Part shown: piece by piece, positions 3,378 to 35,200 of the stretch
Position numbering within the stretch: the stretch's first letter is position 1
Layout: each line of letters starts with the position of its first letter
Virus record (IMG/VR): IMGVR_UViG_3300031918_000006
Location: 32,001 to 96,000 of that record
Source: a virus
Length of the DNA: 64,000 bases
Strand: one strand, 5' to 3'
The notes under the pieces: model-generated
The model's database searches: none
What the model saw: the letters and a program-made list of their open reading frames with translations, nothing else
What the model was told of the DNA's origin: nothing
Program-made: the position numbers and the translations under genes

Positions 3378-3809
3378 ATGAAATTTAAAGTCAAGTATTT
3401 ACAAGAAGGAGGCCCAGTTGCCCCAGAACAAGGTGGAGCACCTGCTGCACCAGAACAAGGTGGAGCTCCCGCAGAAGGCGGGGCACCAGCTGAAGGAGGT
3501 GGTGGACAAGATCCTCTAATGCAAATTGCAGAAATGTTTTCACAAGCACTACAATCACAAGATTGCGCAGCGTTATCACAAGGAGCTCAAATGTTTCTAC
3601 AGTTGATTTCTCAAGCACAAGGTGGTGGCGCAGGCGGAGCACAAGGTGGAGCACCTCCAGAACAACCAGTCTATATGAAAAAAGGTGGAAAATTTGTTCT
3701 AAAAGGTAAAAAACCCGGAAAATTTACTAAGTTCCAAGATGACGGAACTAAAGGGGCCAATTCTACAGAAATGGAGAAAAAAGGTGGTAAAATGAGCAAA
3801 AAATGCTAA
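3378..3809 (+). CDS. Small low-complexity Gly/Ala/Pro/Gln virion-associated protein
   Basis: APEQGGAP repeats; KYLQEGG, MKKGG and EKKGG motifs; flanked by its own promoter and terminator. Confidence 0.65.
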   Translation: MKFKVKYLQEGGPVAPEQGGAPAAPEQGGAPAEGGAPAEGGGGQDPLMQIAEMFSQALQSQDCAALSQGAQMFLQLISQAQGGGAGGAQGGAPPEQPVYMKKGGKFVLKGKKPGKFTKFQDDGTKGANSTEMEKKGGKMSKKC

Positions 3810-9787: not shown

Positions 9788-9788
9788 T

Positions 9789-12700: not shown

Positions 12701-15700
12701 ATTTGTTACCAATCCTAGTATTGACAGACTTGATAAGAATTTTACCAATGAAATGAGGGATGTATTTGACGGGCTCACTTTAAATGATTTAATTGGAGAA
12801 AATGCATCTTTATTTGATACATTAAGTGAGGATGAAAACTTTAATGAAGAGGGATTACCTGGAACTGATTATGACTTATTAAGTATAGATGATCTTTTAA
12901 ATGAGAATCTTACAAGTGTTTTTAATAAACTAGACGCTGCTAAATTACATAATAAAGATAATCAACGTGCATTAAATACAATCACTAAAATCACTTCTTA
13001 TATATTAGGTAATCCTAATGTTAATTTGATGAATAGTAAAAAAGCAGAATTTGAACAAGCTGTGCACGGAAGAACTATTAATACTTTAAATGAATTATTA
13101 GACCAGTTTGATTTTTTACAAAATGGAACTAAATCTACTATTACTCAATTATTAACAAATGAGTTTGAAGCTTTAGGAAAAGTAAATGATATCAATGATT
13201 ATCAAATATATAATCCTAATACTATTGAAAATTTAGAAAGTGCTAAAGTATTACTTGAACGTTTACAAGCTTTAGTTATTGCCTCAACAGAATATGATCA
13301 TAAAAAACATGGTATCTCAGGTTATAATAGTATAATCAATAATACATTTAAAGGATCTCAATTAGGAATTATCACACAAGAACAAGCTACTCCTTTATTA
13401 AAAGAAATTCAACAAATTAATGCAAAAATTGAATTATTTTTAACACTCTCTGCATTTAATAAAGAGAGTAAAGTGAAAAATAATATAGCTTCTGGTATAA
13501 ATATGGAGACTCTGTTCTTTGGACATTTACAAGAAGGTTCTTTTAGAAATATGTTGGATAGTTTAAAAATAGAAGAAGAAGAATTCATTACTCCTGATAT
13601 GGCTAAATCTATCGAGGATGCTAAAACCATAAAAAGATCTTTAGAAATTAAACAATCTAAAGAAGGAGAACTTCCATCTTCAGATGAAGAAGTATTTCAA
13701 TTTGAAGCAGAACGTTTAAAAATAAATAAAGTATTCTTTGAGAGAGTAAAAGAACTTAATTTAAAATATGGAGAAGATAAAATACACGAATTACTCTTTA
13801 ATAATACGTTAGCTAAACAATTATTTCCAGTAGCACAAATGAGTCATGCTACTCCTACTAATTTTAATACTACTACAACTCAAATTCAACCTTTAGATTT
13901 ATTTATATGGTGGAATACAATGGTTACAGAGGATCCTGCAGAATTCTATACTGAATTAAGAGGAGATGAAACAGAACCAGGTAAATATGATGGAATAGAA
14001 ACAAGTAAATATGTTCCATTTTATGCACAAGAGTATTCTGCTAAAATTATATTAAGTTTTCTTGATAATAAAAGTTGGATAAATAAATCTCTTAATTATT
14101 TAGGAGGAGTTGATACAGAAGGCGCTGCTATTACTGGTACTTTTATGGGTAAATTACATGAAACCTTTAAAAATCTGGTATTTGTAAATGGTGTTCCTGG
14201 TGCTGGTAAATCATCTGCTGTTGGTTATACCGTAGCTAAAATATTGAAAAAGAGAGGTAAAACTTTCTGGACTGCTGGCGCTTATGATACACAAGCAAAA
14301 CAATTGGAAACTCTATTAGAAAATCCAACTGCAAATGTTTCTTTTAATAAAACACGCTTATTAGCACAATTTCTTATTCCAGAAGCTGTTACAGAAATTA
14401 CTAATTCTAATGCTTCTTGTTTAGGCAAAGGAAGTATGACTGATATTGTAACTAAATTAGCTGAAAATAAATTAATTAAACTTAATAGAGTAGTAGAGAA
14501 ACAAGAGGGAAAAGAATATGAAAAACTTAAGGTAGGTGAAATTAAACCAGAAGCATTCTTAGAAATAAACAGAAGTACTTTACCAGCAGCAATTTTTTTA
14601 GATGAGATTACTCATTTATCTATGATTGAATTAGAAGCATTACGTCAATCCTTAATACGTTTAGGAGAAGATGCTCCTCTTATAATAGGTTTAGGAGATT
14701 CACTTCAAAATGGTTTTAGAATTGCAGGGGAAGATCATAATATGGATATGTTTAGAACTTGGAATACTCCAAAATTAGCCGGATCATTAAGAACATCTAA
14801 TGATTTAAAGAATACTAATCTTATCAATACAGTTGCTAGATATAGTATGATTACAGAGGCTTATGATAAAGTATTTACTGAACAAAGTGTAGACTATGCT
14901 GCAGTTAAAGCTAATATTGAAAGCATGCATAATCCTGATGATGAATCTACTTGGTATAAATTAGGTCACCATACTAATGAGATGGGAATTGTATTTGGAG
15001 AAAAGGTATCTAATGCTTTAGGAGTGTCTAAAGATTTAAAAAATATCTTAGATAATACAATTGGAACTGTGGGATTTATCACTGATAATAATACCTCAGA
15101 AAATGAAATTTTATCTGGATTAACTCCTTCTCAAAAAAGTAGATTAGACATTAAAAGTATAACTGATGTACAAGGTTTAGAATATGATCACATAGTAATA
15201 GATGTGGATTGGAATGCTTTAGCTCAAGATACTCCTATGGGTCCGCTTAACTTTATTTCAAATGTTTATACTTTAACTACTCGTTCTAGAGTTGGGAGTT
15301 TAATATTGGATAGAAATTTTAGTACCAACAATTATTTAGTAGTTAAATCTCAAGAAGCTAATCAAGTAATTGATGTTACTTTAGATAAAGAAATTCTTAA
15401 AAAATTTAAAGAAAAAAGAGTAGAAGATGTAACTAAATTAGCTAATTTTTTTGAAGGTACTACTTCTGTGACTCCTAAGATTAAATCTAAAGACGTTACT
15501 CCAGCTATTCTTCCTGTATCTGCTACTGAAAGTTTTGCTCAAGAAATTAAGAGAATGGACGAGGAAATTGAGGCAGCTGAAGCTGGTAATAGTTCTACAA
15601 ATAGACAAATGCCCACATTAGATCTAGCTCAAAAAAATACTCATTTAATGACTTACCCTTACTATGAGAGAGTAGGAGTTCCTGGAGAAGATGCTCTTAT

Positions 15701-17945: not shown

Positions 17946-20900
17946 TGAGAAATAACTGCGGTTTAATATCAACGAACGCGTCCATCGAACTGATGGGCGT
18001 GTTTAATAATTTTATAAAAACACTCTATAAAAAAGGAGCAAAAAATAACTATGCAAGATTAGAGGATAAAATTGCAGAATATCTATATGACAAACATAGG
18101 AAAGACGACAAAAATGATGCTTTAACTCCTGAGGAGAGTCATTTTATTGAACAACAGTTTATTTTATATACAGCTGCTGTTAAACCTATTTTAACTAAAA
18201 GTAGAATAGATACAAAATTTGCAGAAAAAATATGGGGAGATTCTACAGCCGTTAAACCTATAGAATTGTTTTTGGCTGATGTACAGAAAGCATTAATAGA
18301 GGGGAGTGAAACTACATTAACAGAAAAAGTTAAAAATTTATATGAAGTTTCTCCAGAAGATACTTCTTTAATTCCAGCTCCTAAAGAAGAATTAATTCCA
18401 ACACCTCCATTAGAAGGTGAAACTAAAATTACTAAATTCACAGATATTAGTAATAAAATGGATTTAAAAGAAGTTTTTGCAAATGCAAATACTGCTTATT
18501 TATTATTAGAGAGAAGAGTTTCTAATCATATTGTTAGGAATTATTTAATCAATCAAGAAACAGGAGTGTATAACTCTTCAAGTAATTCTGTTGATAAATC
18601 TGTAAAAGCTAATAAAACAAGAATCTATAAAGAACTTATTAAGAATTTTGAGCAAAAGGGAATTAAATTTGTTGATAGTGAGAGAGATTATTACGTTAAT
18701 GGAAGAATTAATGATAACATTAAGAGTGTATTAGATAGAATTGCTGATTATTATAAAAAATATGATGGGACTGGTATAACTAATATCAAATTAGAAGAAT
18801 GGACACAAAATAATATAAATGAGATTTCTGATTTTATAAATTTTGTTACTATCTCTAACTTTGATAATTTGCTTTTATCTTATGGGAAAGGTATATTCAA
18901 AATTTCTGATAGTTACCTAAACTCAGCTAATGAAAAGTATGATGAACCTAAATATGTTTTAGATATTGCTAGTAATATCAATGATAGTATATTTCAAACA
19001 GGTGAATATAACTTATCTGATGAACAATCATCATTGTTTAAGATGTTTATCTCATCTATGCCTTCTGTTACATTTGATAAACAAGTTTCTCATGATAAAG
19101 AAATTGATTTGAATACTGTAAATACAGTAATGGCTAAATTATTACATGGAAATCTATTAGAAGGGGCTCCTATATATGATCCAACAAATAGTATGGAAAG
19201 TATGAAAGCTTTACTTGAATTTGCCATCAATAATTTTACAGGAGAAGGTAAAAAAATAAAGAGTTTTGATAAAATTGAAAAAGACACTTTACTCTCAGTT
19301 TATATGTACTTTTTCAGAAATAATGATGAACTTACTACTAAACATCCTAAAGTTCTATTAAATAACTCATTAAGATCAGCTATACAAGTAGCTTATGGTA
19401 ATGATACTGAATCTGGATTTAAAAATATCCCCTCATTTTATCATTTAGCCTCAAATAGTGAAGTTATTTCTGGGATGGACTACTTTAATGTTATAGTAAG
19501 TAACTTTGATAAAACATACTTAAATGAGTACACAGAGTATACCTACGATAAAGACCGAGGAACCATTACTGTAAATAGTCCTACTGAAAGATTAATTAAT
19601 AGTTCAGAAATTCAATTCACTAATAATTTAAATAATTTTATTAATCAAGAGTTTAATAAGACTTTCTTAGAAAATAGATATAAAGATGTTACTATTGAAG
19701 GTAAAGAGTCTGATATGCCTACAGTAAGATTTGAATTATCTAAAGGAGTATTTATTACAGCTAATTTAGCAAACGGTGGTATCTCAATTACAGATGGTAT
19801 TAAAACTACTGATTCTAAAGCACTTGATTTTAAAATAAGTCCTATACAAGAACAAAAATTAGTAGAAATTTTAAATAAAATCTTACCCCAATTACAATTA
19901 AGAGATGATAAAGGAAATGACTTTTATTATCCTCTTTTTACTCAAGTATTTTCTCCTACTCTGGATGATCATGTAGAAGCATTAACAGCTCTAGCTAAAG
20001 TGGCTGGATATGTAGCTTATACTTCATCTATGGTTAATGAAATAGGTAAAGATGGTTTATTAGGTAGTAAATGGATGAAAAATTTTGGAGCAGACAAGTC
20101 ACCTTATATTAAAGATGATGAGGAGTTTTCTATTGCCAGAATGTTTCCAGGTTATAGTGATATAGCTAAAAATATTGGTAAAGGACTCTCTATTATTAAT
20201 GGTGAAACACATAAAGCTGTAATTAAAGTAGGTAATGTTACTGTTCCTACAATTGGAGAAGTAAGACATTTATATGCTCTTCCTAAATGGAGGAATTGGT
20301 TAATCAAGCAAAATGGTAATAAATTAACTGGAATGCCTATTGCTAGTAATCTATTTATGAGAAATCCTGATTTTTTAAAAGGATTTAAAATTAGAAGTTT
20401 TGTAAAATCAGGTGATAATGTGAAACATTCCTCAGAGATGGCACCACTTGAAATAGCAACTACTTTCATAATGCATGACTATATAGCAGCTGCTAATAAA
20501 TACAATGAAGTTTACATTCAATCTACAGTATTCGCTGATAAAAATAGCCATAATAGTGTAGTTGTAAAACTAAATGAAGAAATTCAAATCCCAGGAATTA
20601 CTAATAAAATCTCTCTCTCAAATGTAACAGCTACTGAATTAAAACAAGCTGCTTTTTTGAATAATGCTACTTATTATAAAGCTATCTCAGATAAGTTAAC
20701 TTCTACTTATATACCAGTGCTACAGACTCTATTGCCTGGGACTACAATTGAATCTACTTTACAAGGAGTTCATGATGCCATGAGCAAAGTTCAAGAACAG
20801 GATTTTAGAAATGCTTTTTATAAACATTATAATGGAAGTGAGTATATTATTGAAGATTTAGGAATAGAAAAGAATAAAAAAGATGGCACATGTGGTTTAT

Positions 20901-23900
20901 CTCCTTTATTAATTTACTATACTGAAATGTATACTGATAAATCAAAAACTACTCCTGCTTTTACAAAAATGATGAAAGCTAACGAATTGCTTTTTGCTAA
21001 AAGTTTAAACTCATATAATATGAATATTGAGTACATGGATGGTAAAGGAAGTCTTAATCCTTTATTTATTCGTAAGGGTACCTCAACTATTTTTGATACT
21101 TTAAAAATAGCAGATGAAAAAACAGGAGATAGAATTACTAAAGAGAATTTTGAAAAAAATTGGGTAGATCCTTCTACAAAATACTTAACCATTTATAAAG
21201 GAGGAGAATTAAATCCTTTGCTTAGACATTATTTTTACATGGATAACTATATTTCTGAGAATTTATCTCAAGCTAGTATGGGGACTATTCATAATCATCC
21301 ATTTAAAGGAAAAGCTAAGGCTAAACCTGGTACTTTTGAGTTCTTTACTGAAATAGAATCTGCTAAAACAGCTGCTATGTATAAAAGACAACTTCAAGGT
21401 ACTCCCATGAAACCTTTGAATTTAAATTTAATCAATGGTGTACGTGAAACTATGAGTTCTGTATTTTTAACTGATATAAATAATCCAGTTTATACTAGTT
21501 TTGGAATTAAAGATAAGATGACAGTAACTGACGGTTCAGCGCAAGTAACCCCTTTACAATATATTCTACAAAACAATTCATTACTAGAAAATTCAGTTGG
21601 TCCTAATGCTAAGATGTTTAGTTTATTTATGGATCCAAAGTATAACTCATATGGTTTAACTAAATATGCAGAATTTGGTATTACTAATGAAATGATTCAA
21701 AATTCTAAAGGTTCTACTTATGATCTTATGAATTTAATAGAAAAAAGTTACAGGTATAAACCTTTTACTAGGAGTATTACTATTGAGGAATTTAATCCTA
21801 ATACATTTGATTATGATAAAACTTTAGTACAATATACTCCAGATATCTTAAAAGATTTTAAGGGTAATAATATAACTATTGAAACAATTGCTCCTAATGG
21901 ATTATTCTATGTAAAAAATGATCAAGTATATGAGATTAAATCTTTAACAAGAGGTACTACTATAACTCAACCTTCTGGAGAAGTAATAGTAGCAAAAGGA
22001 GAATCAAATGATTTTCAGGTGCAGGCTATAAATTTAACCACTGGAATGGCCGAAGTTCCTAAATCTGTTAAAATAAATGATTTATTTGATTTATGGCAAG
22101 CTTTGGGGGCCGAAAATTCAGTATCTATTGATAAAGAAGGACAATATTCTGGTAGTAGAAATCCTGGAGAGACATTAAACTTTACTGAATCTGATGCTTC
22201 TCATTATGCTTTAGCAGAATTTGTAAATAGAGTAGGCCATAAAATGGATTCTAATCAAAAGGTTAATTTAATCAATAAATATGGTTTAAGAGATCTATCA
22301 GATCCACATACTAATGCTATATACTCTAAAGAAACTGAGGCTAATTTTGTAAAATTATTTCCAGAGTTTAAAGTAAATAAAACTGACTTTAAAGTACACA
22401 ATCAGACAAATACATGGCAACCTTTAAAAGCAATGTTCATTGGAAAATATATCCACACATCTGCACAAAAGTCAGGTGCTATAAATGTGCATAATATCGA
22501 TGATGTGTATAACCAAACAAAACCAATTTATCCAGTAGATGTTCCAGCAATTTCTACAGGATTACTTATGACTACAGAGCATGAAGTAGAAGGCTCAGAG
22601 ATCACTAAAATGACTCAAATCTATAGTGCTATAGAATTTATGGGTGATTCACATAATGTGTCTAGTGGGGTTTATAATGCCATTGCTGACGTCTTAAATA
22701 TTAAACTTAAATCTTTATTTGATGCTACTGAATTCCAAAATGTAAATAAAGAGGCATTATATAAAGAAGTTACTGACAATTTGATTCGCACATTTAACTC
22801 TAAAGACCAACAATCTATTGGTAAGTTCATTGGACAGATGGTAGAAAGAAATTCAGACGAGATAAAAGCATTTACAGCTCAAGCCAAAGAAGCCGAAGCT
22901 ATCACAGAAGATGCTACAGGTGAAGAGCCTGGAGTAGCTAGTACTATGAGTATGAGTATAGTTAGAGATGGTAAAAGAATGCCTTTTAGTACTTATATGT
23001 ACAGTTCTTTTATATCTCTTATGAGTAATTTTTTAAATAAAGAGGCTATTAAAGATAAACAGTCTGGCATTGCCTCTCCTATTAAACCTTCTGGAGGTAT
23101 GCTTCAAGTGTATGATTCAGAAGATATTAATGGTAAAAAAGATGTACTTTTAAGAAAAAATTACGATAAATTAAATGCTGCTGAAAATATAGTGGAAGCC
23201 CCAATTACTATTGGAGAGATTTCTTTAAATGATTGGGTAAGAGAAAGTGATGGTAAAACTATGAAAGAGTATCAAGTAAATACTCCAGAAAAGTTAATTG
23301 CACTTAAAAGAAAGGATACAGGAGAATCTGTTCCAGTTCAAACTTTTAAAGGATTTTGGACAAGAGGTACAGTACAAAATGATACTAATAATGTTTATCT
23401 ATTTGGCGATAATACTAACGATAGGATGGTTACTAAATATATTCCTGGGGCAACCCAAGCTGTTATTAGAGGACTTCCTAATGCTATAGGAATTGATACA
23501 AAGAGAGATAGAGGTACTACAAGTAAATCATTCTTAACAGATGCTGATCTTCCTTGGTTTAAATCACATGTAGACGAGCAATTAAAGAAAGCACAAGCTT
23601 TAGGTAAACCTATTATCCTTCCAGAAGATGGAATTGGAACTGGAAAAGCTATGTTAAAAGAGAAAGCTCCTGCATTATTTGCATACTTAAATGAGGCTCT
23701 ATCTAAATTAGAAACAACTAAACCTTCAAAAGTAAAATTTGTAAAATTATATGGTAAACCAAGAGATTTACAACCACCACTTTTAACTTTTAAAGTTATA
23801 GGTAAAGGAATGAAAGAATCTCCTATGTCTATTTATGAATTACCTGATTTTGCAATGGTTTATGACTATAAAGAAATTTTGGAAGATAAAAAACCCATGA

Positions 23901-25549
23901 CTGCAGAGTTAGGTTCTTTTTTAACTAAGAGATTTCCAGGAGAAAATATTGAGAAATTAATGAAGAATACCAAATTAGTAAACAATGCTTTACGAGTTAA
24001 TATTCAAAGTATTTTTAATAGAATTGATACTCAACATAATGTCTTAATTAACGGAAAAGAGTATCCAGTAGAAGTGTTAACACGTTCTTCTGGGGAAGCC
24101 ATTGGCCCAAATATTTATAGAACTATGTTTGACTTACCTAAGGGAACTTCAGTTAATCAAGTTACTGAAGATTTCTTATTTCAAAGAATGTATGATAAAT
24201 CTAAACCTGCTATCAATGATAAAAGTTGTTATGCTTACGTACAGAATCCAAATGGAAATCATATCTACATTTTTAATAAAGTTCCAACTGAATTTACAGA
24301 ATATACTCAAGGTAAACAGATAAAAGAAATTAATGGACAGTATTGGGTAGTAGATGGTAATGGTGATCCCAGATATATAGCCCCATCAGGTCTTACAGGT
24401 ACAGCACTTATTGGTGGAAAAAGAGTAGAAGTAATTGTCACTAATGATTTACCAAGTCTTCAAAAAACTCTTCAAGAGACTAAAAATTATGACAAAAGTT
24501 TACAAACTGGTAGAATTTATAATGTCAACGAAAATAATGATGCTATTCTTAAAGAAGAGTGTGCTATTCTAGCTAAAAAAAGATTTTCTAGTTTTAGAAC
24601 CACTTTAAATTATATTGCAGCACGTATTCCCGGACAAGGTTTCCAATCATTTACTGATTTAAAACTTGTAGACTTTATTCATACAGAAGGTAATACAGTT
24701 ATGACTAACCATTTTACTTCCTGGTTAAAAGGAGAGGATTATGATATTGATAAAGGATTCTGGCTTGGATTAACTCTTAAAAATGGAATTGTAGTAGGTT
24801 GGGCTAATGAATTTGATTATAGCTCAGAAGAATCTCTTATAGCTTCTATGTCTCTGCCTTATCCTGATAAAAAATGGAGAAGTTTAGACACAGAAGATAG
24901 TATTGATGATCCTGCAGAAGTTACACTTACTAACGAAGAAGTAGATAGCCTATTTGAAGAAAATATGTCCAAATTACGTAGTGATACTTTAGTTAAATTA
25001 GGTAATATTGATAATTATAATTTCTTAGGAGAAAATCACACAGCTTATGAAGTACAAGAAAAAGTTAATGAATACTTTATGCAAACTATACCTTTAAATG
25101 CTATGGAAGATGCTGTTAAGAATAAAATGGCTTGGGGTATTAGAGATGCTGTAGTTAAACCTGTAAACTTAAATCATACAGAGTCTCCTATTGGAATGGA
25201 AGAACTTAGAGATGAAGCCACGGAAGCTAATAGAGTTGTAAGTAATAATAATCCAATGAGTAAGGCTGATTTTCAATATGCAAACATGGTTGGTAAGAAT
25301 GTAATTGGTATTGCAGCTGTTGCATTAAAGATTTGGAGTGCTGCTTCTTTCTACGGAAATGATAAAGTAAAAAAGGGAGAATTTGCTTCTATATTAATGG
25401 ATAAAAATCTCAAAATTAACGGAAAAAATCGTTATATTGCGAGCCAAGCAAACCTTAACTTTAGTGCGAAGGCTTCTACTGTAATTACAGATGAATATAT
25501 TGCTGATCAAGTAGGTAAAAATAATATTGAGGAAAATTGTAATGGATAA
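17945..25549 (+). CDS. Virion-associated RNA polymerase, crAss-type two-barrel, catalytic part (2534 aa)
   Basis: ARIPGQGFQS followed by GEDYDIDK (DxDxD at ~24737-24751; compare DFDID of phi14:2 gp66); TDGSA motif in the upstream barrel region. Confidence 0.85.
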   Translation: MRNNCGLISTNASIELMGVFNNFIKTLYKKGAKNNYARLEDKIAEYLYDKHRKDDKNDALTPEESHFIEQQFILYTAAVKPILTKSRIDTKFAEKIWGDSTAVKPIELFLADVQKALIEGSETTLTEKVKNLYEVSPEDTSLIPAPKEELIPTPPLEGETKITKFTDISNKMDLKEVFANANTAYLLLERRVSNHIVRNYLINQETGVYNSSSNSVDKSVKANKTRIYKELIKNFEQKGIKFVDSERDYYVNGRINDNIKSVLDRIADYYKKYDGTGITNIKLEEWTQNNINEISDFINFVTISNFDNLLLSYGKGIFKISDSYLNSANEKYDEPKYVLDIASNINDSIFQTGEYNLSDEQSSLFKMFISSMPSVTFDKQVSHDKEIDLNTVNTVMAKLLHGNLLEGAPIYDPTNSMESMKALLEFAINNFTGEGKKIKSFDKIEKDTLLSVYMYFFRNNDELTTKHPKVLLNNSLRSAIQVAYGNDTESGFKNIPSFYHLASNSEVISGMDYFNVIVSNFDKTYLNEYTEYTYDKDRGTITVNSPTERLINSSEIQFTNNLNNFINQEFNKTFLENRYKDVTIEGKESDMPTVRFELSKGVFITANLANGGISITDGIKTTDSKALDFKISPIQEQKLVEILNKILPQLQLRDDKGNDFYYPLFTQVFSPTLDDHVEALTALAKVAGYVAYTSSMVNEIGKDGLLGSKWMKNFGADKSPYIKDDEEFSIARMFPGYSDIAKNIGKGLSIINGETHKAVIKVGNVTVPTIGEVRHLYALPKWRNWLIKQNGNKLTGMPIASNLFMRNPDFLKGFKIRSFVKSGDNVKHSSEMAPLEIATTFIMHDYIAAANKYNEVYIQSTVFADKNSHNSVVVKLNEEIQIPGITNKISLSNVTATELKQAAFLNNATYYKAISDKLTSTYIPVLQTLLPGTTIESTLQGVHDAMSKVQEQDFRNAFYKHYNGSEYIIEDLGIEKNKKDGTCGLSPLLIYYTEMYTDKSKTTPAFTKMMKANELLFAKSLNSYNMNIEYMDGKGSLNPLFIRKGTSTIFDTLKIADEKTGDRITKENFEKNWVDPSTKYLTIYKGGELNPLLRHYFYMDNYISENLSQASMGTIHNHPFKGKAKAKPGTFEFFTEIESAKTAAMYKRQLQGTPMKPLNLNLINGVRETMSSVFLTDINNPVYTSFGIKDKMTVTDGSAQVTPLQYILQNNSLLENSVGPNAKMFSLFMDPKYNSYGLTKYAEFGITNEMIQNSKGSTYDLMNLIEKSYRYKPFTRSITIEEFNPNTFDYDKTLVQYTPDILKDFKGNNITIETIAPNGLFYVKNDQVYEIKSLTRGTTITQPSGEVIVAKGESNDFQVQAINLTTGMAEVPKSVKINDLFDLWQALGAENSVSIDKEGQYSGSRNPGETLNFTESDASHYALAEFVNRVGHKMDSNQKVNLINKYGLRDLSDPHTNAIYSKETEANFVKLFPEFKVNKTDFKVHNQTNTWQPLKAMFIGKYIHTSAQKSGAINVHNIDDVYNQTKPIYPVDVPAISTGLLMTTEHEVEGSEITKMTQIYSAIEFMGDSHNVSSGVYNAIADVLNIKLKSLFDATEFQNVNKEALYKEVTDNLIRTFNSKDQQSIGKFIGQMVERNSDEIKAFTAQAKEAEAITEDATGEEPGVASTMSMSIVRDGKRMPFSTYMYSSFISLMSNFLNKEAIKDKQSGIASPIKPSGGMLQVYDSEDINGKKDVLLRKNYDKLNAAENIVEAPITIGEISLNDWVRESDGKTMKEYQVNTPEKLIALKRKDTGESVPVQTFKGFWTRGTVQNDTNNVYLFGDNTNDRMVTKYIPGATQAVIRGLPNAIGIDTKRDRGTTSKSFLTDADLPWFKSHVDEQLKKAQALGKPIILPEDGIGTGKAMLKEKAPALFAYLNEALSKLETTKPSKVKFVKLYGKPRDLQPPLLTFKVIGKGMKESPMSIYELPDFAMVYDYKEILEDKKPMTAELGSFLTKRFPGENIEKLMKNTKLVNNALRVNIQSIFNRIDTQHNVLINGKEYPVEVLTRSSGEAIGPNIYRTMFDLPKGTSVNQVTEDFLFQRMYDKSKPAINDKSCYAYVQNPNGNHIYIFNKVPTEFTEYTQGKQIKEINGQYWVVDGNGDPRYIAPSGLTGTALIGGKRVEVIVTNDLPSLQKTLQETKNYDKSLQTGRIYNVNENNDAILKEECAILAKKRFSSFRTTLNYIAARIPGQGFQSFTDLKLVDFIHTEGNTVMTNHFTSWLKGEDYDIDKGFWLGLTLKNGIVVGWANEFDYSSEESLIASMSLPYPDKKWRSLDTEDSIDDPAEVTLTNEEVDSLFEENMSKLRSDTLVKLGNIDNYNFLGENHTAYEVQEKVNEYFMQTIPLNAMEDAVKNKMAWGIRDAVVKPVNLNHTESPIGMEELRDEATEANRVVSNNNPMSKADFQYANMVGKNVIGIAAVALKIWSAASFYGNDKVKKGEFASILMDKNLKINGKNRYIASQANLNFSAKASTVITDEYIADQVGKNNIEENCNG

Positions 25550-28049
25550 AGGATGTATACATACATACAAAGGCGTAGAATATAGGAATTATCAAGATTT
25601 AAAAAATGCATTAATTGAGGAGCAGAGTAGTCACTACTTTGCTCCTTTTATGGCTGCAGTTTTAGAAAAATTAAAGAATAATCCCGATATAACGGGCGTG
25701 CAAGAGATTGAAAAGGTCGTGAAAGAAATTTCTGATCAATTTATGTTGAAAGAAGATGTTAGTTTAACTTTGAGTCAGTTATTAAGTGCTGCTACTGATA
25801 ATGCTAAAGAATTAATCTTAGCTAAAATTAATGCAGGACCTGAAACTGCTGGAGTTTATGCATACTTAACCATGTTAGGAGTTCCTTTTAAAGAAATTGC
25901 TCAAATGATGAAGAGTGATGCAGTTAAATGGGTTATTGAGAATTCTCGTAAAAATATTTTTGATAAACAAACTGATTTTAATAGTATTAAAAGTTCTATT
26001 AAAGAGTTTGAAAATGGCCCTAACGTATATAAATATTTAGATTTTGATAGGGCCAATATTTTTTCTAATATTCTAAGAGATAGTTTAAAAAATAGTACTT
26101 TTTTAGGAGCACTTCCTTATGGTAATATATTTAAAGATCCCGAAGTAATTAAGATTCTCTCTAATACTGATAAAAAGAAAGGCCCAGTCGTAAAAATGCA
26201 TTCTATAGGTGCTTTAATGTCTCCTATAGATATTACAAGTAAAGTTGGAGATACAATAGTAACTAAATCTTTAGATTTTAATATTTCTAGAGAAGATATT
26301 AGTGAATTTTACAAAACTTTGCAAGAAGGTAATTTTATAAAAGAGTCATATGAACCTGTAGTTAATAAATATACAGAAGACGAGGATATGGATATGGGTT
26401 GGGAAGATGGTGAAATTAGAAGTAATAAAATTCCTGTAAAAATTGAGGTATCTAGATTTATACAAAAAATGATAGAATATTTAGATAAAGCTCCAGAAGG
26501 AGACATATCTGAATTTGCTAATATTATGGAAGATTCAAAAGAAGTTCTTATCTTAGGTAGAATGCTTTCTATAAATCAAGGTATTAAAACTGATAGTTAC
26601 TCTCAATATGCTTTTTTTCAGAGAGTTACTGATTATATAATTGAAAAAAGCAAAGGTAAAATGTCTTTAGAAACTCCAGAGAAAATGATGTCTGAGATGA
26701 TGGAAGAAATGCCTACTCATAGAGTAGACCCTAAATTTTTAGAAGAAGTTATGAAAAGATTCGATTTTAAAAAATTTTTAGGGATAGGTTTAACACAAGA
26801 AGACGCTACTATTTATAGAGAAACTAGTAAATTGTGGTATAATAAGATTAAATCCTCCTTTAATATTTTAGCTATTGTCTCTGATACTCCCCATTTTAAT
26901 GCAATGCTAGGAGTTTCCTCTTTAATGGAAAATATGAAAAGCATGCTCTCAGTTAAAGCAAAATTAGTTGATAAATTAATTAAAGATGTTTATGATAAAC
27001 ATATTATAGCTTCAGATTTAACTGAGGAACAGATGGAGTATAAAACAATTGCTGATAAGGACTATTTTAAAATTATGGATTTTGCAAATGATTCTATTAT
27101 ATTAAAGTGGATTCGTTCTTTAGACGACTCTAAGAGAATTTTTGCACATGATTCAAATACTTATCACACTATTGTTGATAATAAGATTGTTAAAGTTACT
27201 GAAGAAAATAGGGAGAGATATCCACGTAAAATTGATGTTAGTAGTGCTGAGGGAAGACTAGATTTTATAGACATGGTTCATGAGATGATGTCTGTGTTAA
27301 AAGATGGAAAATTCTTAGTTAATGGTGAGTATAAAGAACATCCTCTTCTAAAAAACAATGCTTTTATACATTCATTCGATATTGATAAGAAAAGAGATCC
27401 TTTAACTGGTAAAAACAATAAGTTCTATAAGCTTCCTATGAATATATTAAATGTAAATGAAGCTAATACTCATAAGTTTAATAGTTACTTAATTGGATTT
27501 TCAGACTTAGCTAAAATTGAGTATAATGGAGTTAATATACAGAATTTATTATTCTTATATAATACTTTTATTCACAGGGATAAAATTAATAGAGACTCTT
27601 TAACAAAATTGTTTGAATCTTCTACCTCTGGTATTGAACATACTATGATGGGTGATTTTATTAAATGGGCTGGAGATTTTGATTGGAATGAAAAAGAATT
27701 ACAATCTTTATCCGAATCTAAAGAGTATGATTATGATATAGACGATATTATAATTAAAGGATTGGCTACTAAGATCTTCTCAAAAAACTTGGATAGAAAT
27801 GTAGGAAAATATGCTTATGCAGTCTTGTATAATGCTTCTACAGGAGAGTCTACAAAGCAATATTATGAGTGGAACAATAGTGCTAGTACTTATCAAAAAT
27901 ATGATCACTTTAGTAGTGATTTAGCAATAGCTTCTAGTGCGGGATCACAAATTGGAGTACAAAGAGGAAATGCAAATGACTTTAATGCTACTTTAAGAGA
28001 AATCTCAAATAGAGGAATAATAATAAACAATGTAAAAATAGAATGTTAA
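25542..28049 (+). CDS. Probable C-terminal part of the split virion RNAP (835 aa from ATG 25542)
   Basis: LSQLLSAATDNAKELILAKIN resembles the segment I recall following the catalytic motif in crAss RNAPs; ATG overlaps the upstream stop (ATGGATAA). Confidence 0.6.
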   Translation: MDKGCIHTYKGVEYRNYQDLKNALIEEQSSHYFAPFMAAVLEKLKNNPDITGVQEIEKVVKEISDQFMLKEDVSLTLSQLLSAATDNAKELILAKINAGPETAGVYAYLTMLGVPFKEIAQMMKSDAVKWVIENSRKNIFDKQTDFNSIKSSIKEFENGPNVYKYLDFDRANIFSNILRDSLKNSTFLGALPYGNIFKDPEVIKILSNTDKKKGPVVKMHSIGALMSPIDITSKVGDTIVTKSLDFNISREDISEFYKTLQEGNFIKESYEPVVNKYTEDEDMDMGWEDGEIRSNKIPVKIEVSRFIQKMIEYLDKAPEGDISEFANIMEDSKEVLILGRMLSINQGIKTDSYSQYAFFQRVTDYIIEKSKGKMSLETPEKMMSEMMEEMPTHRVDPKFLEEVMKRFDFKKFLGIGLTQEDATIYRETSKLWYNKIKSSFNILAIVSDTPHFNAMLGVSSLMENMKSMLSVKAKLVDKLIKDVYDKHIIASDLTEEQMEYKTIADKDYFKIMDFANDSIILKWIRSLDDSKRIFAHDSNTYHTIVDNKIVKVTEENRERYPRKIDVSSAEGRLDFIDMVHEMMSVLKDGKFLVNGEYKEHPLLKNNAFIHSFDIDKKRDPLTGKNNKFYKLPMNILNVNEANTHKFNSYLIGFSDLAKIEYNGVNIQNLLFLYNTFIHRDKINRDSLTKLFESSTSGIEHTMMGDFIKWAGDFDWNEKELQSLSESKEYDYDIDDIIIKGLATKIFSKNLDRNVGKYAYAVLYNASTGESTKQYYEWNNSASTYQKYDHFSSDLAIASSAGSQIGVQRGNANDFNATLREISNRGIIINNVKIEC

Positions 28050-28050
28050 C

Positions 28051-31000
28051 ATGGCATGTACACTAACGTTCACTTTAGGTGGAATAAAATATAATATACC
28101 TGCAGAAGGTAATCTTGCTGATTATGACGGAAAAAACCTCACAGATATATTAGGATCTTTAGATTCTCATACACAAATTAATTTATTAGAGAATATTTTA
28201 AAATATTCTAACATTCAGCCGTATGATTATGAAGAAAATCCAACTGTAACTAATTTAATAGCTTCTAATAATATTCCGAATATTAGTGTAAGCAAGTTAA
28301 CAGAAAAATTAGGAGATTTAGTTTTACCTGATGGATCTAATCATTTTAAATTACGTCAAGTAGTTTTAAGTATGTTAAATGAAAAGACTGATAAAATATC
28401 TTTAGTTTCTGCACAAATCACAGATGGTTCCAAAAAAGGACATGGAGTATTTATTTCACAAACTGGAAGTATCTATGTGCATGCTAAACCTAATGATAAA
28501 ATTGATACTCTTGAGGATTATTTTTTAGGAAAGGATAGCAAAGTCTTACTAGAACGTCTTGCTCATGAATTAACTCATAGTAAATTAGATGCATTAATGG
28601 TTAATCAACCAGAACTTGCCAAGGAATTAGTTGAGGAATGGAATTCAAAAAAAGGAGGATTATCTGATGAATTTAAGAGTATTAAAAGTAGTATTGACAA
28701 GTTAAAAACAAATGAAGCAAAAGCAAACGAAATTATTGCTTATTACTTTAGTGATTTCCAATTACAAGGGGCTTATCAAAGTAAAACACTAGAAGATGCT
28801 TTTAAAAGTATGGTTTCAAATATAATTCCATTAGAAACAATAGTTTCTACTTCTACTCCTGGCTATTTTGATTCTTCCAATCCATATGAGGATTATGACC
28901 ATTCTAGATATAAGAATCATTGGGATGATCCTGTTTGGCAATATAGACATCCTGAATTAGAACCTCCATTCACAGGAGATACTAATGCTTCTCTTCAAAA
29001 AATGGTTGCAGAGATAGATCCAACTTCTGAGAATTACCAAGCAGATAAAGCTAAACAAATCTTAGCTAGATTTAATGCTAATACCTCTGATATTCAAGAA
29101 AATTCTGAATTTAAATACCAGAAATATGATGTTTCTTATGGAGCACCTATTGTTATTGATGATTTTAATAGAGATATTCAAATCTTAAGATTAGCAGAAA
29201 ATGACTTGGTATTAGTAAGTAAAGATATCTTCCTAAATCCCAAAACAAAAGAATGGGAAGCTAGGCCTACTAAAAAAGGTGAGGAAAAGTCTTCATATCG
29301 TCCTGTTATTAGTACTTATATTAATGCTAATAATGAAGTAATGATTAATCTACCTATTAAAGATGGTAGTGGTAAAACATATTCTCTACCAGCTAAGTTT
29401 GTAGAAAGTTTACGTAAATATGATGGAGATTTAATAGATACTCCTTATAATAAAGAAAAAGCTAAAGAATATGCAGATTGGATGGTTGCTAATGTAAATT
29501 CAGCATATGGTGATGATCCTGCCGATAGTTCTATAATTAGAACTATAGATATTACTTCTAAAACTGGAAAAAGCTTTCAAATTTCAGTGGCTTCTAACTA
29601 TGAATCTTATGGATTTAAATTTTATAACCAAGAATCTGCTAGAGAAATCTATGATGGAGCTGAAGTTGGAGATGTAGTTAAAGTGTTTATAAAAGAAAAA
29701 GGAGATAAGAAAGCGGGAGGATATCGCGCTAAAATACTACGTAAATTTGGAAACTCAGTTGAAGTAGTTACTTCTAAAGGTGCTGTACTTATTGTAAAAC
29801 CCTCTGCTATCAATGAGGTAATCTATTTAAAAGAAAATCATCCAGACTTTTTATCACAAGTAGAAAATATTGATAAAGGGACTATTAGCCAAGATCTTAT
29901 TGATGATGGTAATAGTCAATTTAGAAAATATCGTAAAGTAAATTTTGTATCACAAAATAAAAAAGATGGGGAATTTCAAGATAAGATTAATGATTATTTT
30001 GATATTTATTCAAAAGAAGATTCTGCTATTAAAGTAGAGAGACGTCGCGCTGAAGTTAAAAAACTTAAAGCCGGAGATCTTATAAAGGTTAAATGGTATT
30101 ACACAGATACAAAAACTAAAGAAGATAGAGAAGTGTCACACTGGTATCCAGTAGTTACTAAAACCTCTGATTTAGTTTACTATTACAATTCTACTTCTGA
30201 GAAAGTATCTTCTGTGAATATTTTAGATGGTAAAGGATATGAAATCTATGGATTAGCTATAAATAATACAAATTCTTCTAAATTATTTGATGAATTTAAT
30301 GAAATCAGAAAAAGTATAGAAGGATTACGTAGAGATGATACTGGTACATTACTCTCAGATGATGCTATTAAAAATAACTTAGGAGAAGCTCTTAGAAATG
30401 CAGAACCATCTAGTTTACAAGACATTTATCATATCACAGAAATAGAAGATGTAGATGAAGTAGCAGCTGGAGAAGATAATGACCTTAAATTATCAGTATC
30501 TCAAGTACAAAGAGGTAGTATTGTTAAAGCCTATGTATTTGATATAGATGAAGAAGGTAGAGACAAAAAAACTAAAATTTATAAATGGTTTGTAGTAACT
30601 GGCTTTGATGAAAACACTGGAAGACCTATATGTGTTACACAAACTAAAGATAAAAATGGTAAAACTGGTGTATATAAAGAATATCCAATTGAATTTCAGA
30701 ATATTAAAGCAATAGGTCATAGATTAACTGATAATGCTGATTTAGGAATTTATGGAAATAAAACTCTAAAAGAATACTTAGATAAGTTAAGAAAAACTTT
30801 TGATACTATTAGTGAACCTATTTTTATTACTCAAGCTGAAACTCCTAAATATGAGAGATCAAATAGAACTTTTAACACAGCTTTATATGGTTTACTTAAA
30901 AACGGAAAGATGGGTTATGCAGTGTCTGATAAATATGTAATAGAACAATTTAAAGATAAGACTGATTTTGAAGAATGGAAGAAAAATACACCAGAAGCTA

Positions 31001-32235
31001 AAGGATTAACCTGGACTTATACTGAACCTAAGTTGTATATTTTAAGAGGTAAACAATATATGAAGAAACTCTATATGAATTACTTAGAAGTACACGGTTT
31101 ACTTAATTATGAACCCAACATACATGATAGTGTAAGAATTGGTGATATAGTTACTGAAACATGGAAGTACCAAGGAGATGATGTTAAAATGGACTCTATG
31201 ATTACTGCTAAAACTCCTACAGGATTATGGGTGGAACGTTTAGGAAAAAGTCCTTCAGGGGATTCTATTTCGGTTAGAAAAAAGATATATAGACATAGAG
31301 AAGGAGTTGAATATCCTCAGATCTCAGATGTATACTTACATAAAAAACGTGATACTACCTCAACTTCTAGAGAAGACGCTAAAAGTAGACAAACTAATCT
31401 TTTAATTGGTAATACTCAGTATGAAGAGAAGATTAAAAATCTAGATCAGGAAACTAAAGAAAGAAAAGCAAGTACTTTAAAAAAACCACTTAAAGCTTCT
31501 TTAGATACTGATAATTTCTATAAGAGTAGAGATTCGGAAAGTAAGATTATGGAAATTGTAGATAAACTACAATCTACTTATAATGTGCCTATTATAATGC
31601 TTAGAACTAATGAGATTGCTCAAAGTTTTGGTGATATTTTAGGAACTGATGCTACTAAAGTTAGAGGATTTATAAATGAGGGTAAAGTTTATATAAATTT
31701 AGATAAAGCTTCTTCTGCAGAACCTCTACATGAGATGGCACATATTATATTAGAGAGTATTAAAGCCAATGACTATAATTTATATCAAACGGTTATTAAT
31801 TCTGTTAAGTCTCATCCATACTATGATGCTATAGCTAAAAATTATCCTAATAGGGCCCCGGAAGACTTAGATGAAGAAGTATTTGTTTCTATTTTTGGAG
31901 AAAAATATAGAACAGTTACTCATAATCAATATAATAAGTCTTGGTATGATCAAAATGAAAGTATATTTACAAATATCTGGAATTATATGAAAAATACTTT
32001 TGCTTCTATTTTTGACAATAAATCTATCTTGGATATTCCAAATGAAAAGCTTGCTATGATGCCTTTAGACGAATTAATTAGTACCTTTGGGGACAATTTG
32101 ATGGAAGGTAAATTTAAACACGTTTTAAATTATGATACATCAACTCTTGAGAGAAAAGTGACCAATTTAAAGACAAATCTTTTATCAAATGAAGATGAAT
32201 CAGAAAGTTACCTTAGAAAAACTTGTAATACTTAA
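28051..32235 (+). CDS. Giant polyvalent virion protein with two zincin-like HExxH domains
   Basis: LAHELTH (~28564-28578) and LHEMAH (~31729-31743), each preceded by beta-strands (GSIYV; GKVYIN) and followed by a downstream Glu (ANEIIA; DEEVF). Confidence 0.7.
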   Translation: MACTLTFTLGGIKYNIPAEGNLADYDGKNLTDILGSLDSHTQINLLENILKYSNIQPYDYEENPTVTNLIASNNIPNISVSKLTEKLGDLVLPDGSNHFKLRQVVLSMLNEKTDKISLVSAQITDGSKKGHGVFISQTGSIYVHAKPNDKIDTLEDYFLGKDSKVLLERLAHELTHSKLDALMVNQPELAKELVEEWNSKKGGLSDEFKSIKSSIDKLKTNEAKANEIIAYYFSDFQLQGAYQSKTLEDAFKSMVSNIIPLETIVSTSTPGYFDSSNPYEDYDHSRYKNHWDDPVWQYRHPELEPPFTGDTNASLQKMVAEIDPTSENYQADKAKQILARFNANTSDIQENSEFKYQKYDVSYGAPIVIDDFNRDIQILRLAENDLVLVSKDIFLNPKTKEWEARPTKKGEEKSSYRPVISTYINANNEVMINLPIKDGSGKTYSLPAKFVESLRKYDGDLIDTPYNKEKAKEYADWMVANVNSAYGDDPADSSIIRTIDITSKTGKSFQISVASNYESYGFKFYNQESAREIYDGAEVGDVVKVFIKEKGDKKAGGYRAKILRKFGNSVEVVTSKGAVLIVKPSAINEVIYLKENHPDFLSQVENIDKGTISQDLIDDGNSQFRKYRKVNFVSQNKKDGEFQDKINDYFDIYSKEDSAIKVERRRAEVKKLKAGDLIKVKWYYTDTKTKEDREVSHWYPVVTKTSDLVYYYNSTSEKVSSVNILDGKGYEIYGLAINNTNSSKLFDEFNEIRKSIEGLRRDDTGTLLSDDAIKNNLGEALRNAEPSSLQDIYHITEIEDVDEVAAGEDNDLKLSVSQVQRGSIVKAYVFDIDEEGRDKKTKIYKWFVVTGFDENTGRPICVTQTKDKNGKTGVYKEYPIEFQNIKAIGHRLTDNADLGIYGNKTLKEYLDKLRKTFDTISEPIFITQAETPKYERSNRTFNTALYGLLKNGKMGYAVSDKYVIEQFKDKTDFEEWKKNTPEAKGLTWTYTEPKLYILRGKQYMKKLYMNYLEVHGLLNYEPNIHDSVRIGDIVTETWKYQGDDVKMDSMITAKTPTGLWVERLGKSPSGDSISVRKKIYRHREGVEYPQISDVYLHKKRDTTSTSREDAKSRQTNLLIGNTQYEEKIKNLDQETKERKASTLKKPLKASLDTDNFYKSRDSESKIMEIVDKLQSTYNVPIIMLRTNEIAQSFGDILGTDATKVRGFINEGKVYINLDKASSAEPLHEMAHIILESIKANDYNLYQTVINSVKSHPYYDAIAKNYPNRAPEDLDEEVFVSIFGEKYRTVTHNQYNKSWYDQNESIFTNIWNYMKNTFASIFDNKSILDIPNEKLAMMPLDELISTFGDNLMEGKFKHVLNYDTSTLERKVTNLKTNLLSNEDESESYLRKTCNT

Positions 32236-32245
32236 AATAATATAA

Positions 32246-35200
32246 ATGAGTAAATGTAAATTCACCTTAACAGTAAAAGGTAATAATATAGAATTTGATA
32301 CTGAAGAACAATTAAATTCATATCTTAAAACCAATTATGACACTCTTTCTAGAGGTCATATTGGCGGAGATGTGGAATTATCTACTGTATTAGAAGGGAA
32401 AGAAAAGACAAAATTAGAACAAACTGTGGCTAAATTACAAACCATTGCTTCAAAGACTCCTGAGATAACTACTGTAGAGTTTAACGAGAATGGTGAGAGA
32501 GTAATTAAATCAGCCTATGAAGGTGTTACTAAAAGAATAAAGCGTCTTGCAAAAGCCGGGGGATTACCTGTGACTTATTATGATGAAAAAAATTATATTG
32601 ATAATAGATTGATTCAAATACGAAGCGCACTTCGTAGGGGGGTAGGTCCGGAAACTTTAAAGGCAGACTATGCTAATATTATCTCTAAATTTACCACAGG
32701 AGTTGAGCAATTAAAAGGAGCAGAGTCTGAAACTTATGATAAGCTAACTAAAGCTCTTATTATGCCTTTAATTATTAAAGAACAGGCACAAAGAAAATTA
32801 TTGGGAACATTTGGAACAAACTTACATAGAATGGCAGAGACATACTTTGCAAACAGATTAGAAAACTCAGATAAGTCTTTTTCCATTGGTAATTTCCCCG
32901 CAGGTATTACAAATCTTTCTACAGAAGGAAAAGAAAATTATTTACAGTATTTAAAAGAATTAACTAACTTTTTAAAGTCAGAACATGGAGATGATGTAGT
33001 TCTTCTCCCAGAATATAAAATATTTGATGATGCTACCAAATTAGTAGGAATTATTGACTTATTAGCAATAGATAGTATGGGTAAAGTTCATATTTATGAC
33101 TTTAAAGCCTCATATAAAGATCCTTCTGATTGGCATTCAGCTAAACAGATTGAATTTAAATATCAATTAGGCATTTATTCTAATATGTTGAAAAATAAAG
33201 GATTTGATGTACGTGGAATACAGGTTTTACCTATTACCATGCTTGATATTAATTTTGATGATGAAACTATTCCAAGATTAGCCGAACATCTTCCTTTTGA
33301 TGCAAGTCCCTCTGAAGATATTAAATATAATATCAATAATAGTGTTATTCCTTTAACAACTGCTGCTTTCTTTGAATCTACATCTAATAGTCATGCTATT
33401 ATCACTGAAAATCTAAAAAAGGCTTGGGGATACAATTTAAAATTAAAATCATCCTACGCTAATGTTCAAGCTTTTAAAGATAGTAGTAGAGTTACAACTG
33501 ATATAAATAAACCTGGAGTATTCACTTTCTGGGATAATATTAAACGTAAGTTTATTGATAATACTGCTGAGAGTTTAGATAAAAACATTGAGAATTACTT
33601 AAAATCAGAAGCTGAGGCAACCTCTTCTGAGTTACTCCGTTTTAAAGATTGGATGATTGCCTCTATTGCTGGGAAAAAACAACTTATAGACTTCAAAAGA
33701 AGAAGTGAGATAGGTAATATTCATATGGTAAGAGCTTTTGAAAAATATACTAAAGGAGGATGGACTTTAGTTGCAGATGATGCAGATCTAGATAGTTTAG
33801 GACTTTTAATGTTTGTAAATGAATCTAATAAGTCCGTAGAATTTGTATCTTATACAGTAAATGCTTTAAATAAAAAGGTTAAACTTCCAATTGGTTCTAC
33901 TATAGTAGGAAACTTTATTTCTGATGGTAAAGGACTTGAATTACCTGATTTATTACCAGCTACAAATGGCAACATAGAATTATTAAAGACTTATTTCTAT
34001 ATTAATGAAAATGCAGAAAAATTAAAAGATTTTACTGTAGGTAGAGTTATGGCTTATAATCCAATTAATTCTGAATTTGTAGTATATAACAATGATGTGC
34101 TTAAAACTAATTTTGGATATTTAATCTCTAGATTAGAAGGTAAAAATACAACTTTAGAAGTAAATACTACTGATAAATTATTAGCTCTTCATAATCAATT
34201 TGTTGAAATTATAACTGAACCTTCTACTTCACAATCAGAAAAAGATTTAGTGAATAAATACTTAACCACTTTAAATGATTACCAGAACACTGGCCGTATG
34301 GAGAGTCTTAAAATTATACAAAAAGATTTACATATGTTATTGAACAAATATGGTCAACATAAAGTAAATAGTTTTATGTTATTTGAGGAAAAACTCTATG
34401 GTATGATCAGTGAGGCTATTGTAGCAGAAGCTGACTTAAGAATTTCTACCTCAGAAAAAGATATTCCTAAATATAGTGCAAATGGTACTATGCTTTCTAA
34501 TCCTGGAAGTATTGGCTCTCGTAATTTACGTGTATTTGTGGATGTAATTAAGTTATCTATGCATAAAATACGTAGAAGACAAACTGAATTCAAAGCAACT
34601 AACGTTGAGATCTTTGATAAGTATCTAACTTCTAAAGGAAAAACTAATTTACGTAGAGCTACTGTTGGAGACAACATTAGGGCTTATGATTCTTTGTTTG
34701 AGGGAAATTCTCCTAATAAAGAACTTATTTTAAAGAATCCATATGATAAAAATACTCCACTAAATAATGAGGAAAGAGAATTTTTAAAGTATTTCTTAAA
34801 AGAAATTAATTTTAGAAGATTTAACACTCAATCTCTTGATTCTGAAACAGCTCAAGACATGATTTCAAGTAAGGAATGGTTTAAATTGCCTTTATTAAGA
34901 GCATCTAGTTCTTCAAAAGCTTCTAATATGAGTCTTAAAGGATTAAGAGATGCTACTACAGAAAATTGGAATAGTTTCTTAAATACTAATCACTTATTTG
35001 ATGAGAAAGATGAACAAGCTGTAAAAAACAGAAGTGAGGATATGTTTACTATGTTTAATGAGTTTAATTTTCATGCACATCCTGATGCTCGTATGAAATT
35101 GATCGAGCAGCAGAGTCCTAATGCATTTGAAACTAATTTAGAGAGAGTTTTAGACAATTTTGTATTTTCCGCTATTAGAAAAGAAGAATATGATGACATG

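Follow-up and report, generated by a model that had tools for sequence, protein, structure and literature searches.

We analysed a window of 64,000 nucleotides (positions 32,001–96,000 of the IMG/VR record IMGVR_UViG_3300031918_000006; all coordinates below are those of the window) in which two overlapping open reading frames (ORFs) encode what profile alignments and predicted structures identify as a crAss-type virion RNA polymerase (RNAP). The genome is a single 115.6-kb contig, and the RNAP gene is single-copy in this assembly. PHROGs found a terminase and a portal, and tblastn with TerL returned MT835470.1 as the best match, followed by members of the Crassvirales (uncultured phage cr*_1, Azobacteroides phage ProJPt-Bp1, Bacteroides phages and IAS virus); by TerL and portal the genome falls among the crAss-like phages. 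The two polymerase ORFs belong to a block of five giant ORFs:

9789–17945, plus strand: P0003, 2718 aa, first of five consecutive giant ORFs
17945–25549, plus strand: P0001, RNAP chain 1, 2534 aa, beginning MRNNC and ending ...IEENCNG
25542–28049, plus strand: P0002, RNAP chain 2, 835 aa, beginning MDKGC and ending KIEC
28051–32235, plus strand: P0004, 1394 aa
32246–36676, plus strand: P0005, 1476 aa, last of the five giant ORFs

By these matches the two chains together are a homologue of gp66 of phage phi14:2 (structure 6VR4). Chain 1 contains N-terminal domains, a DUF7831 insert, the catalytic double-psi beta-barrel and a bridge-helix-like segment, which is a long helix in the predicted fold with a low predicted local distance difference test score (pLDDT). 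Chain 2 contains a trigger-loop segment and C-terminal domains. The features of the catalytic region and of the break are as follows:

24623–24751, plus strand: core of the catalytic barrel, from the RIPxQ..QS motif through G-E-DYDID-K, with columns invariant in a 22-sequence alignment (A2)
25250–25342, plus strand: bridge-helix-like segment NPMSKADFQYANMVGKNVIGIAAVALK..., chain 1 residues about 2436–2466, aligned by hhalign to gp66 1529–1559
25475–25549, plus strand: added C-terminal tail of chain 1, STVITDEYIADQVGKNNIEENCNG and stop codon, with the Cys2532 codon at 25538–25540; absent from the fused relatives P0128, P0129 and P0133
25529–25549, plus strand: junction of chains 1 and 2, with a Shine–Dalgarno (SD)-like GAGGA at 25529–25533, the chain 2 ATG at 25542 and the chain 1 TAA at 25547–25549
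25542–25652, plus strand: added N-terminal head of chain 2, MDKGCIHTYKGVEYRNYQDLKNALIEEQSSHYFAPFM, with the Cys5 codon at 25554–25556; an insertion relative to fused relatives
25752–25877, plus strand: trigger-loop-like segment EDVSLTLSQLLSAATDNAKELILAKINAGPETAGVYAYLTML, chain 2 residues 71–112, aligned by hhalign to gp66 1598–1636 (...AFVDNAKD...)
28044–28059, plus strand: junction of chain 2 and P0004, with the Cys835 codon at 28044–28046, a TAA and then the ATG of the next giant protein (MAC...)

An earlier note on this DNA had assigned the catalytic motifs to two ORFs in different frames that overlap by ATGGATAA, and all of these elements were found in the sequence where it had put them. 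DYDID is residues 2265–2269 of chain 1 (24737–24751), VGKNVIGIAAVALK lies in the same chain at 25289–25330 (the VGKNVIGIAAV segment), and LSAATDNAKELIL is residues 81–93 of chain 2, with ATDNAK starting at nucleotide 25791. The overlap, ATGGATAA, is 8 nt long (25542–25549). Residues T85, D86, N87, A88, K89 and E90 of chain 2 were invariant in 32 sequences.

Alignment to phi14:2 gp66 had been named in that note as a check. A profile of the fused family, in which the polymerase is a single chain, aligned over gp66 1314–1662 (hhalign, Prob 93%, E 3e-7), with RIP.Q...GSDYDIDK on gp66 RIPNQ...GSDFDIDK (DFDID 1361–1365), NP..K...Q.NMVGK.VIGIAA on 1529–1559 and ISQLLSAATDNAKELIL on ISAFLNAFVDNAKDPYI (1603–1619). 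The AlphaFold model of chain 1 residues 1930–2534 (pLDDT 76.7) had 6vr4_A as its best VIA match (Z 7.2, root-mean-square deviation (rmsd) 4.1, 160 residues, gp66 1250–1502), and all subsequent matches were to the bacterial beta' active-site barrel, at Z 4.4 or below. The model of chain 2 (pLDDT 73.5) matched 6vr4_B (Z 10.8, rmsd 4.4, 391 residues), placing its residues 89–799 on gp66 1604–2108; the next best match among all 48,161 representative chains searched with VIA had Z 5.5. Other searches returned little: phmmer with either chain gave no match among Protein Data Bank (PDB) sequences, family profiles A1 and A2 gave only chance matches to them, and Foldseek found no match for chain 2 and only weak ones (E about 5e-3) for the catalytic fragment. 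Pfam matched DUF7831 in chain 1 as the sole domain on the two chains and gave no match in chain 2.

In gp66 the bridge helix spans residues 1529–1559 and the trigger loop 1598–1636 (Drobysheva et al., 10.1101/2020.03.07.982082). Because of these limits and of the profile and structure matches, we place the break at a point corresponding to gp66 ~1597, past the bridge helix and directly ahead of the trigger loop. It is very probable that the polymerase is broken between these two elements, which lie on different chains in the window. The break is downstream of DYDID, as the earlier note had said, but at a distance of 265 residues its wording ‘just after’ the active site was loose. From homology, and from synteny with the cargo blocks of phi14:2 and crAss001, we infer that the enzyme is packaged in the virion and transcribes early genes.

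Relatives of this polymerase are continuous across the break. The stretch from the GK.VIGIAA motif through ATDNAK lies within one ORF (P0006) of MT835470.1 (L001; standard code), and a single ORF of 3401 codons encodes the whole polymerase in MT835492.1 (L002; TAG read as Gln). A search with chain 1 residues 2150–2534 returned more than 100 proteins of 3100–3981 aa that hold DYDIDK, GK.VIGIAA and ATDNAK in one chain. When all distinct fetched sequences of 2800 aa or more were counted, 130 fused homologues (2800–3981 aa) crossed the break as single chains. In these, as in phi14:2 gp66, the VDNAK segment is in the same chain as DFDID; the ORF carrying ATDNAK is homologous to the C-terminus of a single-chain RNAP, as the earlier note had supposed. 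None of the best 150 representatives matching chain 2 was a polyprotein with an internal RNAP C-terminus. Genomes of the relatives reach ~190 kb and show TAG recoding and introns in the DxDxD motif.

Interruptions of another kind were seen in this gene. In MT835470.1 it is cut inside DYDxD by an insertion of ~1 kb (12240–13300), which contains a 234-aa LAGLIDADG-type ORF (12535–13239) flanked by two collinear sub-threshold Intron_gpI matches (23 and 21 bits) and probably represents a group I intron. The N-termini of many database homologues, MG.SFD..G.Y.GWS or M(D)(Y)DIDKAY..., fall within the motif or directly behind it, and for this reason the active-site codons seem to be a frequent point of interruption.

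Aligned with its nearest fused relatives (P0128, P0129 and P0133, about 40% identity), the split clade carries ~50–60 extra residues exactly at the break. They consist of the tail STVITDEYIADQVGKNNIEENCNG and the head MDKGCIHTYKGVEYRNYQDLKNALIEEQSSHYF..., peptides of ~24 and ~37 aa respectively. The insertion that the earlier note had anticipated here was thus present, though smaller than its guess of 70–90 residues.

The same break with Cys-tipped ends was found in at least six further metagenome sequences, at 54–81% identity. Two IMG/VR contigs (L003 and L004, ~80% protein identity) have identical ends and an identical overlap, with TGC as the Cys codon where the window has TGT. Downstream chains P0008 (75%), P0009 and P0010 (both 54%) begin M(D/N)KGC(I/L)H.YKGV, and the upstream partner chains P0126 and P0127 (60%; paired with P0010 and P0009 respectively) end ...HNIEENC and ...NNIKEKCNEL. 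At the junction of the JGI metagenome contig L008, ...NNIKEKCNEL and its stop codon meet MSCKYTYKGIIYESYQDLKEAL..., with ATGAGTTGTAA as the overlap and AAGGAG upstream. Across the split clade, then, chain 1 ends ...IEENCNG, ...HNIEENC or ...NNIKEKCNEL and chain 2 begins M(D/N)KGC... or, in L008, MSCKYTYKG...; the start codon and both cysteines are kept and the overlap sequence is variable. A scan of viral contigs with P0010 gave no match. Comparison of these sequences indicates that the new ends are under purifying selection, both cysteines being retained as the codon varies between TGT and TGC, and that the split is conserved across deep divergence and hence genuine, which bears out the earlier note.

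A sequencing or assembly indel, or a recent pseudogene, has in its favour nothing more than a shift of frame in a gene that relatives carry unbroken. Read error is excluded because the same break, with both cysteines, occurs in independent contigs of different samples and sources at 54–81% protein identity, and both ORFs are intact over 2534 and 835 codons; we give this explanation almost no credence.

The two ORFs might instead be joined in translation, by a programmed +1 frameshift or other recoding near GGA-TAA, so that the mature polymerase is one chain. The 8-nt overlap with the downstream frame at +1 would suit such an event, and for the disrupted RNAP genes of zeta-group phages Yutin et al. 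2021 (PMC7886860) suspected that expression relies on mechanisms as yet unknown. The comparison of split-clade members argues otherwise: the ATG is kept in all of them while the overlap differs (ATGGATAA versus ATGAGTTGTAA) and chain 1 continues for 0, 2 or 3 residues past its Cys; a slippery site is thus not conserved. The ATG is preceded by an SD-like motif (GAGGA or AAGGAG), the Cys pattern recurs at the block's other junctions, which have no overlap or a 10-nt spacer, and a frameshift has no need of a 50–60-aa insertion with two new cysteines. Recoding is therefore very improbable in our view.

The SD-like GAGGA of chain 2 lies 8 nt before its ATG, and the AAGGAG of L008 is at about 1345–1350 of that contig. 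The motif is encoded by Glu-Glu or Lys-Glu-Lys codons of the chain 1 tail and is missing at the other three junctions of the block.

The break could also be the footprint of a mobile element, left by a group I intron or by a split intein that acts through trans-splicing. Related phages are rich in both introns and inteins (Yutin et al. 2021, PMC7886860), the probable group I intron of MT835470.1, with its LAGLIDADG ORF, sits in DYDxD of the same gene, and a Cys near each end faintly recalls the residues at extein/intein junctions. Neither an intron nor an intein fits the site, because the ORFs overlap with no intervening DNA and an Rfam search of 25200–25900 gave no match. In addition, the added peptides are far too short for halves of a Hint domain, of which Pfam finds none; the head Cys is at position 3 or 5, not 1; and the tail ends vary (NCNG, ENC, KCNEL) and lack the His-Asn end of an intein. 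This origin has a negligible chance of being right. A frameshift error, as far as comparative data can tell, and likewise a programmed frameshift, an intron and an intein were rejected, and the polymerase is almost certainly a genuine two-chain enzyme.

Cysteines mark the ends of the block's proteins. Of the 8957 residues in the five giant proteins, 16 are Cys; all eight ends that face a junction hold one (TCN/MRNNC, NCNG/MDKGC, IEC/MAC and TCNT/MSKC) and the outer ends of the block hold none. When cysteines were placed at random, at most three of the eight junction ends were occupied in 200,000 trials (analytic P about 9e-17). Chain 2 has two cysteines only, at residue 5 and at its last residue, 835. 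The same rule holds in MT835470.1 (...NCKLNI / MAC...RINC / MSC...ENC / MAC...) and in MT835492.1. In phi14:2, gp67 has one Cys, its last residue (...TIC), gp66 has two, at 3 and 2179 of 2180 (MAC...ECK), and gp65 has one, at 3 (MSC...). Among the RNA polymerase-associated cargo proteins of crAss001 (gp47, gp49 and gp50; PMC10172136), the single Cys of gp47 is at 2339 of 2341, gp50 has Cys 5, 1334 and 2404 of 2412, and the single Cys of gp49 is at 5. Both the first 7 and the last 6 residues contain a Cys in 127 of the 130 fused homologues. At the sequence level, the pairing of a C-end with an N-end Cys was seen at all four window junctions and in five other phages. It is strictly pairwise in the window, MT835470.1, MT835492.1, phi14:2 and crAss001, where no Cys is present at the N-terminus of the block's first protein or at the C-terminus of its last.

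The break in the polymerase follows this rule, with a Cys on each new end and none there in continuous relatives: the linker between the GK.VIGIAA and ATDNAK motifs is Cys-free in 116 of the 130 fused homologues and has two cysteines in only one. The addition of Cys-bearing ends claimed by the earlier note was thus seen at exactly the new termini. A second split occurs in MT835492.1, where the P0003 homologue is two chains of 1542 and 1556 aa (TAG as Gln) with overlapping ends, ...NNFEACKVIA and MQSNCVNLL... (L007 reverse complement 6806–11434; L002 589–5259). The sole Cys of its first chain is 5 residues from the end, and P0003 and the MT835470.1 homologue are continuous and Cys-free where MT835492.1 is cut. 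Because two independent breaks both acquired paired terminal cysteines, there is good comparative evidence that a Cys is needed wherever one chain of the block ends and the next begins; and because the new ends gained cysteines that continuous relatives lack, as did those of the separate split, comparison likewise argues that the terminal cysteines of crassvirus cargo proteins are functional.

A 143-aa ORF at 3378–3809 ends ...MSKKC. It has no downstream partner for its terminal Cys, the next large ORFs (3875–7969 and 7970–9787) having none at all, and the chain of cysteines seems to begin only at the C-end of P0003.

Taken together, we consider it probable that this is a lineage-specific functional split of the virion RNAP in which the cysteines of the new ends act as a tether. 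The two halves would carry complementary parts of the catalytic centre, the barrel and bridge helix on one and the trigger loop and C-terminal domains on the other, and would have to join for the polymerase to be active, as do archaeal Rpo1N and Rpo1C. The junction, where Cys is the third-last residue of chain 1 and the fifth of chain 2, appears to be made like the others of the block. We hypothesize a head-to-tail tether, in which end peptides would dock, be locked by a disulfide in the virion and come open again in the reducing cytoplasm. Packaging and passage through the tail would then proceed with the polymerase halves and their neighbours joined, in sequence and at a 1:1 ratio. Since the cysteines lie within 5 residues of the ends, the linked joint should be thin enough to pass the tail like a continuous chain. 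Virions of crAss001 contain structural disulfides (PMC10172136). By analogy, the balance tips slightly towards an inter-chain bond between the junction cysteines.

Several observations weigh against this proposal. In archaea the two parts of the largest subunit, Rpo1N (A') and Rpo1C (A''), are separated at the same position and function with no covalent bond between them (PMC8131849); the earlier note had taken the enzyme's need for both halves as an argument that the ends are re-joined, and because of this archaeal case that need is no argument by itself. The host cytoplasm is reducing, and a disulfide could form only in or after assembly. The end peptides at the break had pLDDT below 50 when the chains were folded singly. 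P0011 (671 aa, from a 2.3-kb contig, 55% identity to chain 2) starts MNKEVIFGKEAREKLNTDN and lacks the Cys head, which could be a contig-edge artefact or a variant junction. Within chain 1, hhalign of residues 800–1800 against gp66 gave nothing significant, and the first barrel (DPBB1) was not located. Finally, pairwise comparison of the chain 2 head with the other junction heads found no significant similarity beyond the Cys (the best, to crAss001 gp50, had z 4.2 over 13 residues). Head homology thus lends no support to a shared docking fold, and the ‘Cys module’ of the earlier note survives as a near-terminal Cys with a short added peptide and little more. The idea that the chain 2 head was copied from another junction was dropped for want of significant head similarity.

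With a genuine split, the cysteines might serve without bonding chain to chain, through non-covalent docking, metal binding, a packaging or ejection signal read by portal or capsid, or some other attachment. This would accord with junctions that have the Cys alone in common and heads without homology, with the assembly of Rpo1N and Rpo1C without a covalent link, and with a literature search that gave no such bond in any crassvirus and no mention of these cysteines. The strictly pairwise pattern in the window and its four comparison phages argues against it, as do the two independent new breaks with Cys gained on both sides, the single Cys per end, which is too few for a metal site, and the disulfide of exactly such geometry documented in phage A4 (below). 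We regard a function without bonding as unlikely. As archaeal catalysis requires no covalent link, a tether, if real, would more likely be for co-packaging, stoichiometry and ordered ejection than for transcription chemistry itself.

A broader possibility, which we advance only tentatively, is that Cys ends are a general portable clasp, so that any break in the giant proteins is tolerated if both new ends gain a Cys-tipped peptide, and that the cargo forms a single thread. Were this so, the polymerase would be a disulfide-tethered two-chain enzyme, and the cargo of ~9,000 residues (P0003, the N-terminal and C-terminal RNAP chains, P0004 and P0005) would enter and leave the capsid as one covalently joined thread, in the order of the genes, and come apart on reduction in the cytoplasm.

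What is new here is that a clean, conserved break has been mapped to the linker joining bridge helix and trigger loop and that comparison with fused relatives has delimited its insertion. The break marks this linker as a generally permissive site and offers a ready-made two-piece crass polymerase for biochemistry. Neither the break site nor the terminal cysteines are mentioned in Yutin et al. 2021 (PMC7886860) or the crAss001 atlas paper (PMC10172136); Drobysheva et al. do not mention the terminal cysteines, and a literature search for such a description found none. An end-to-end tether through the cysteines, if real, would account for the ordered exit of several unfolded giant proteins from the capsid at a fixed ratio, an idea directly testable in cultured models.

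Two further domains were found in the block. DUF7831 (23342–23695, chain 1 residues 1800–1917, Pfam E 9e-25) is inserted upstream of the catalytic barrel and occurs as small stand-alone ORFs in many Caulobacter, Rhizobium, Ruegeria and other phages (tblastn). P0005 has a PD-(D/E)XK nuclease domain at residues 186–341 (32801–33268; Pfam E 4e-6; PHROG exonuclease), consistent with the nuclease that Yutin et al. 2021 give as typical of crAss-like phages; besides this exonuclease family match, PHROGs gave none on the five giant proteins.

Among known systems, the junction resembles one in the pre-ejectosome of cyanopodophage A4, where cryo-electron microscopy showed a disulfide inside the capsid between gp27 Cys1715, in the C-terminal helix, and gp26 Cys5 (PMC12002296). 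These are ejection proteins with adjacent numbers, and the geometry is alike in the window, with a Cys at −3 of one chain and at +5 of the next. A4 belongs to a different phage group, has no RNAP among these proteins and shows one such junction, whereas the window has a chain of four; its bond was observed, whereas ours is proposed from sequence.

The enzyme itself is closest to phi14:2 gp66, which likewise is encoded among giant virion proteins of a crAss-like phage, with gp67 and gp65 as neighbours. It differs in being two chains totalling 3369 aa where gp66 is one of 2180 aa, in its inserted DUF7831 and in an identity too low for detection by hidden Markov model against sequence. In zeta and other crAss-like groups, the protein boundaries of the transcription block likewise vary between related phages: Yutin et al. 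2021 (PMC7886860) reported variable RNAP boundaries, with frameshifts and introns striking the DxDxD motif of zeta-group phages, and Drobysheva et al. (10.1101/2020.03.07.982082) noted that certain phages have the three proteins as a fusion. Compared with the disrupted zeta genes, the break described here is a clean stop/start overlap in the standard code, without an intron, and is conserved.

Archaeal Rpo1N and Rpo1C are cut at the same place as the window RNAP, in an independent event in a very distant two-barrel polymerase. Their chains assemble non-covalently within an enzyme of 12–13 subunits, without Cys-tipped ends, and are neither packaged in nor ejected from a virion. By this analogy the archaeal and phage splits are convergent, which shows that the linker between bridge helix and trigger loop tolerates a chain break.

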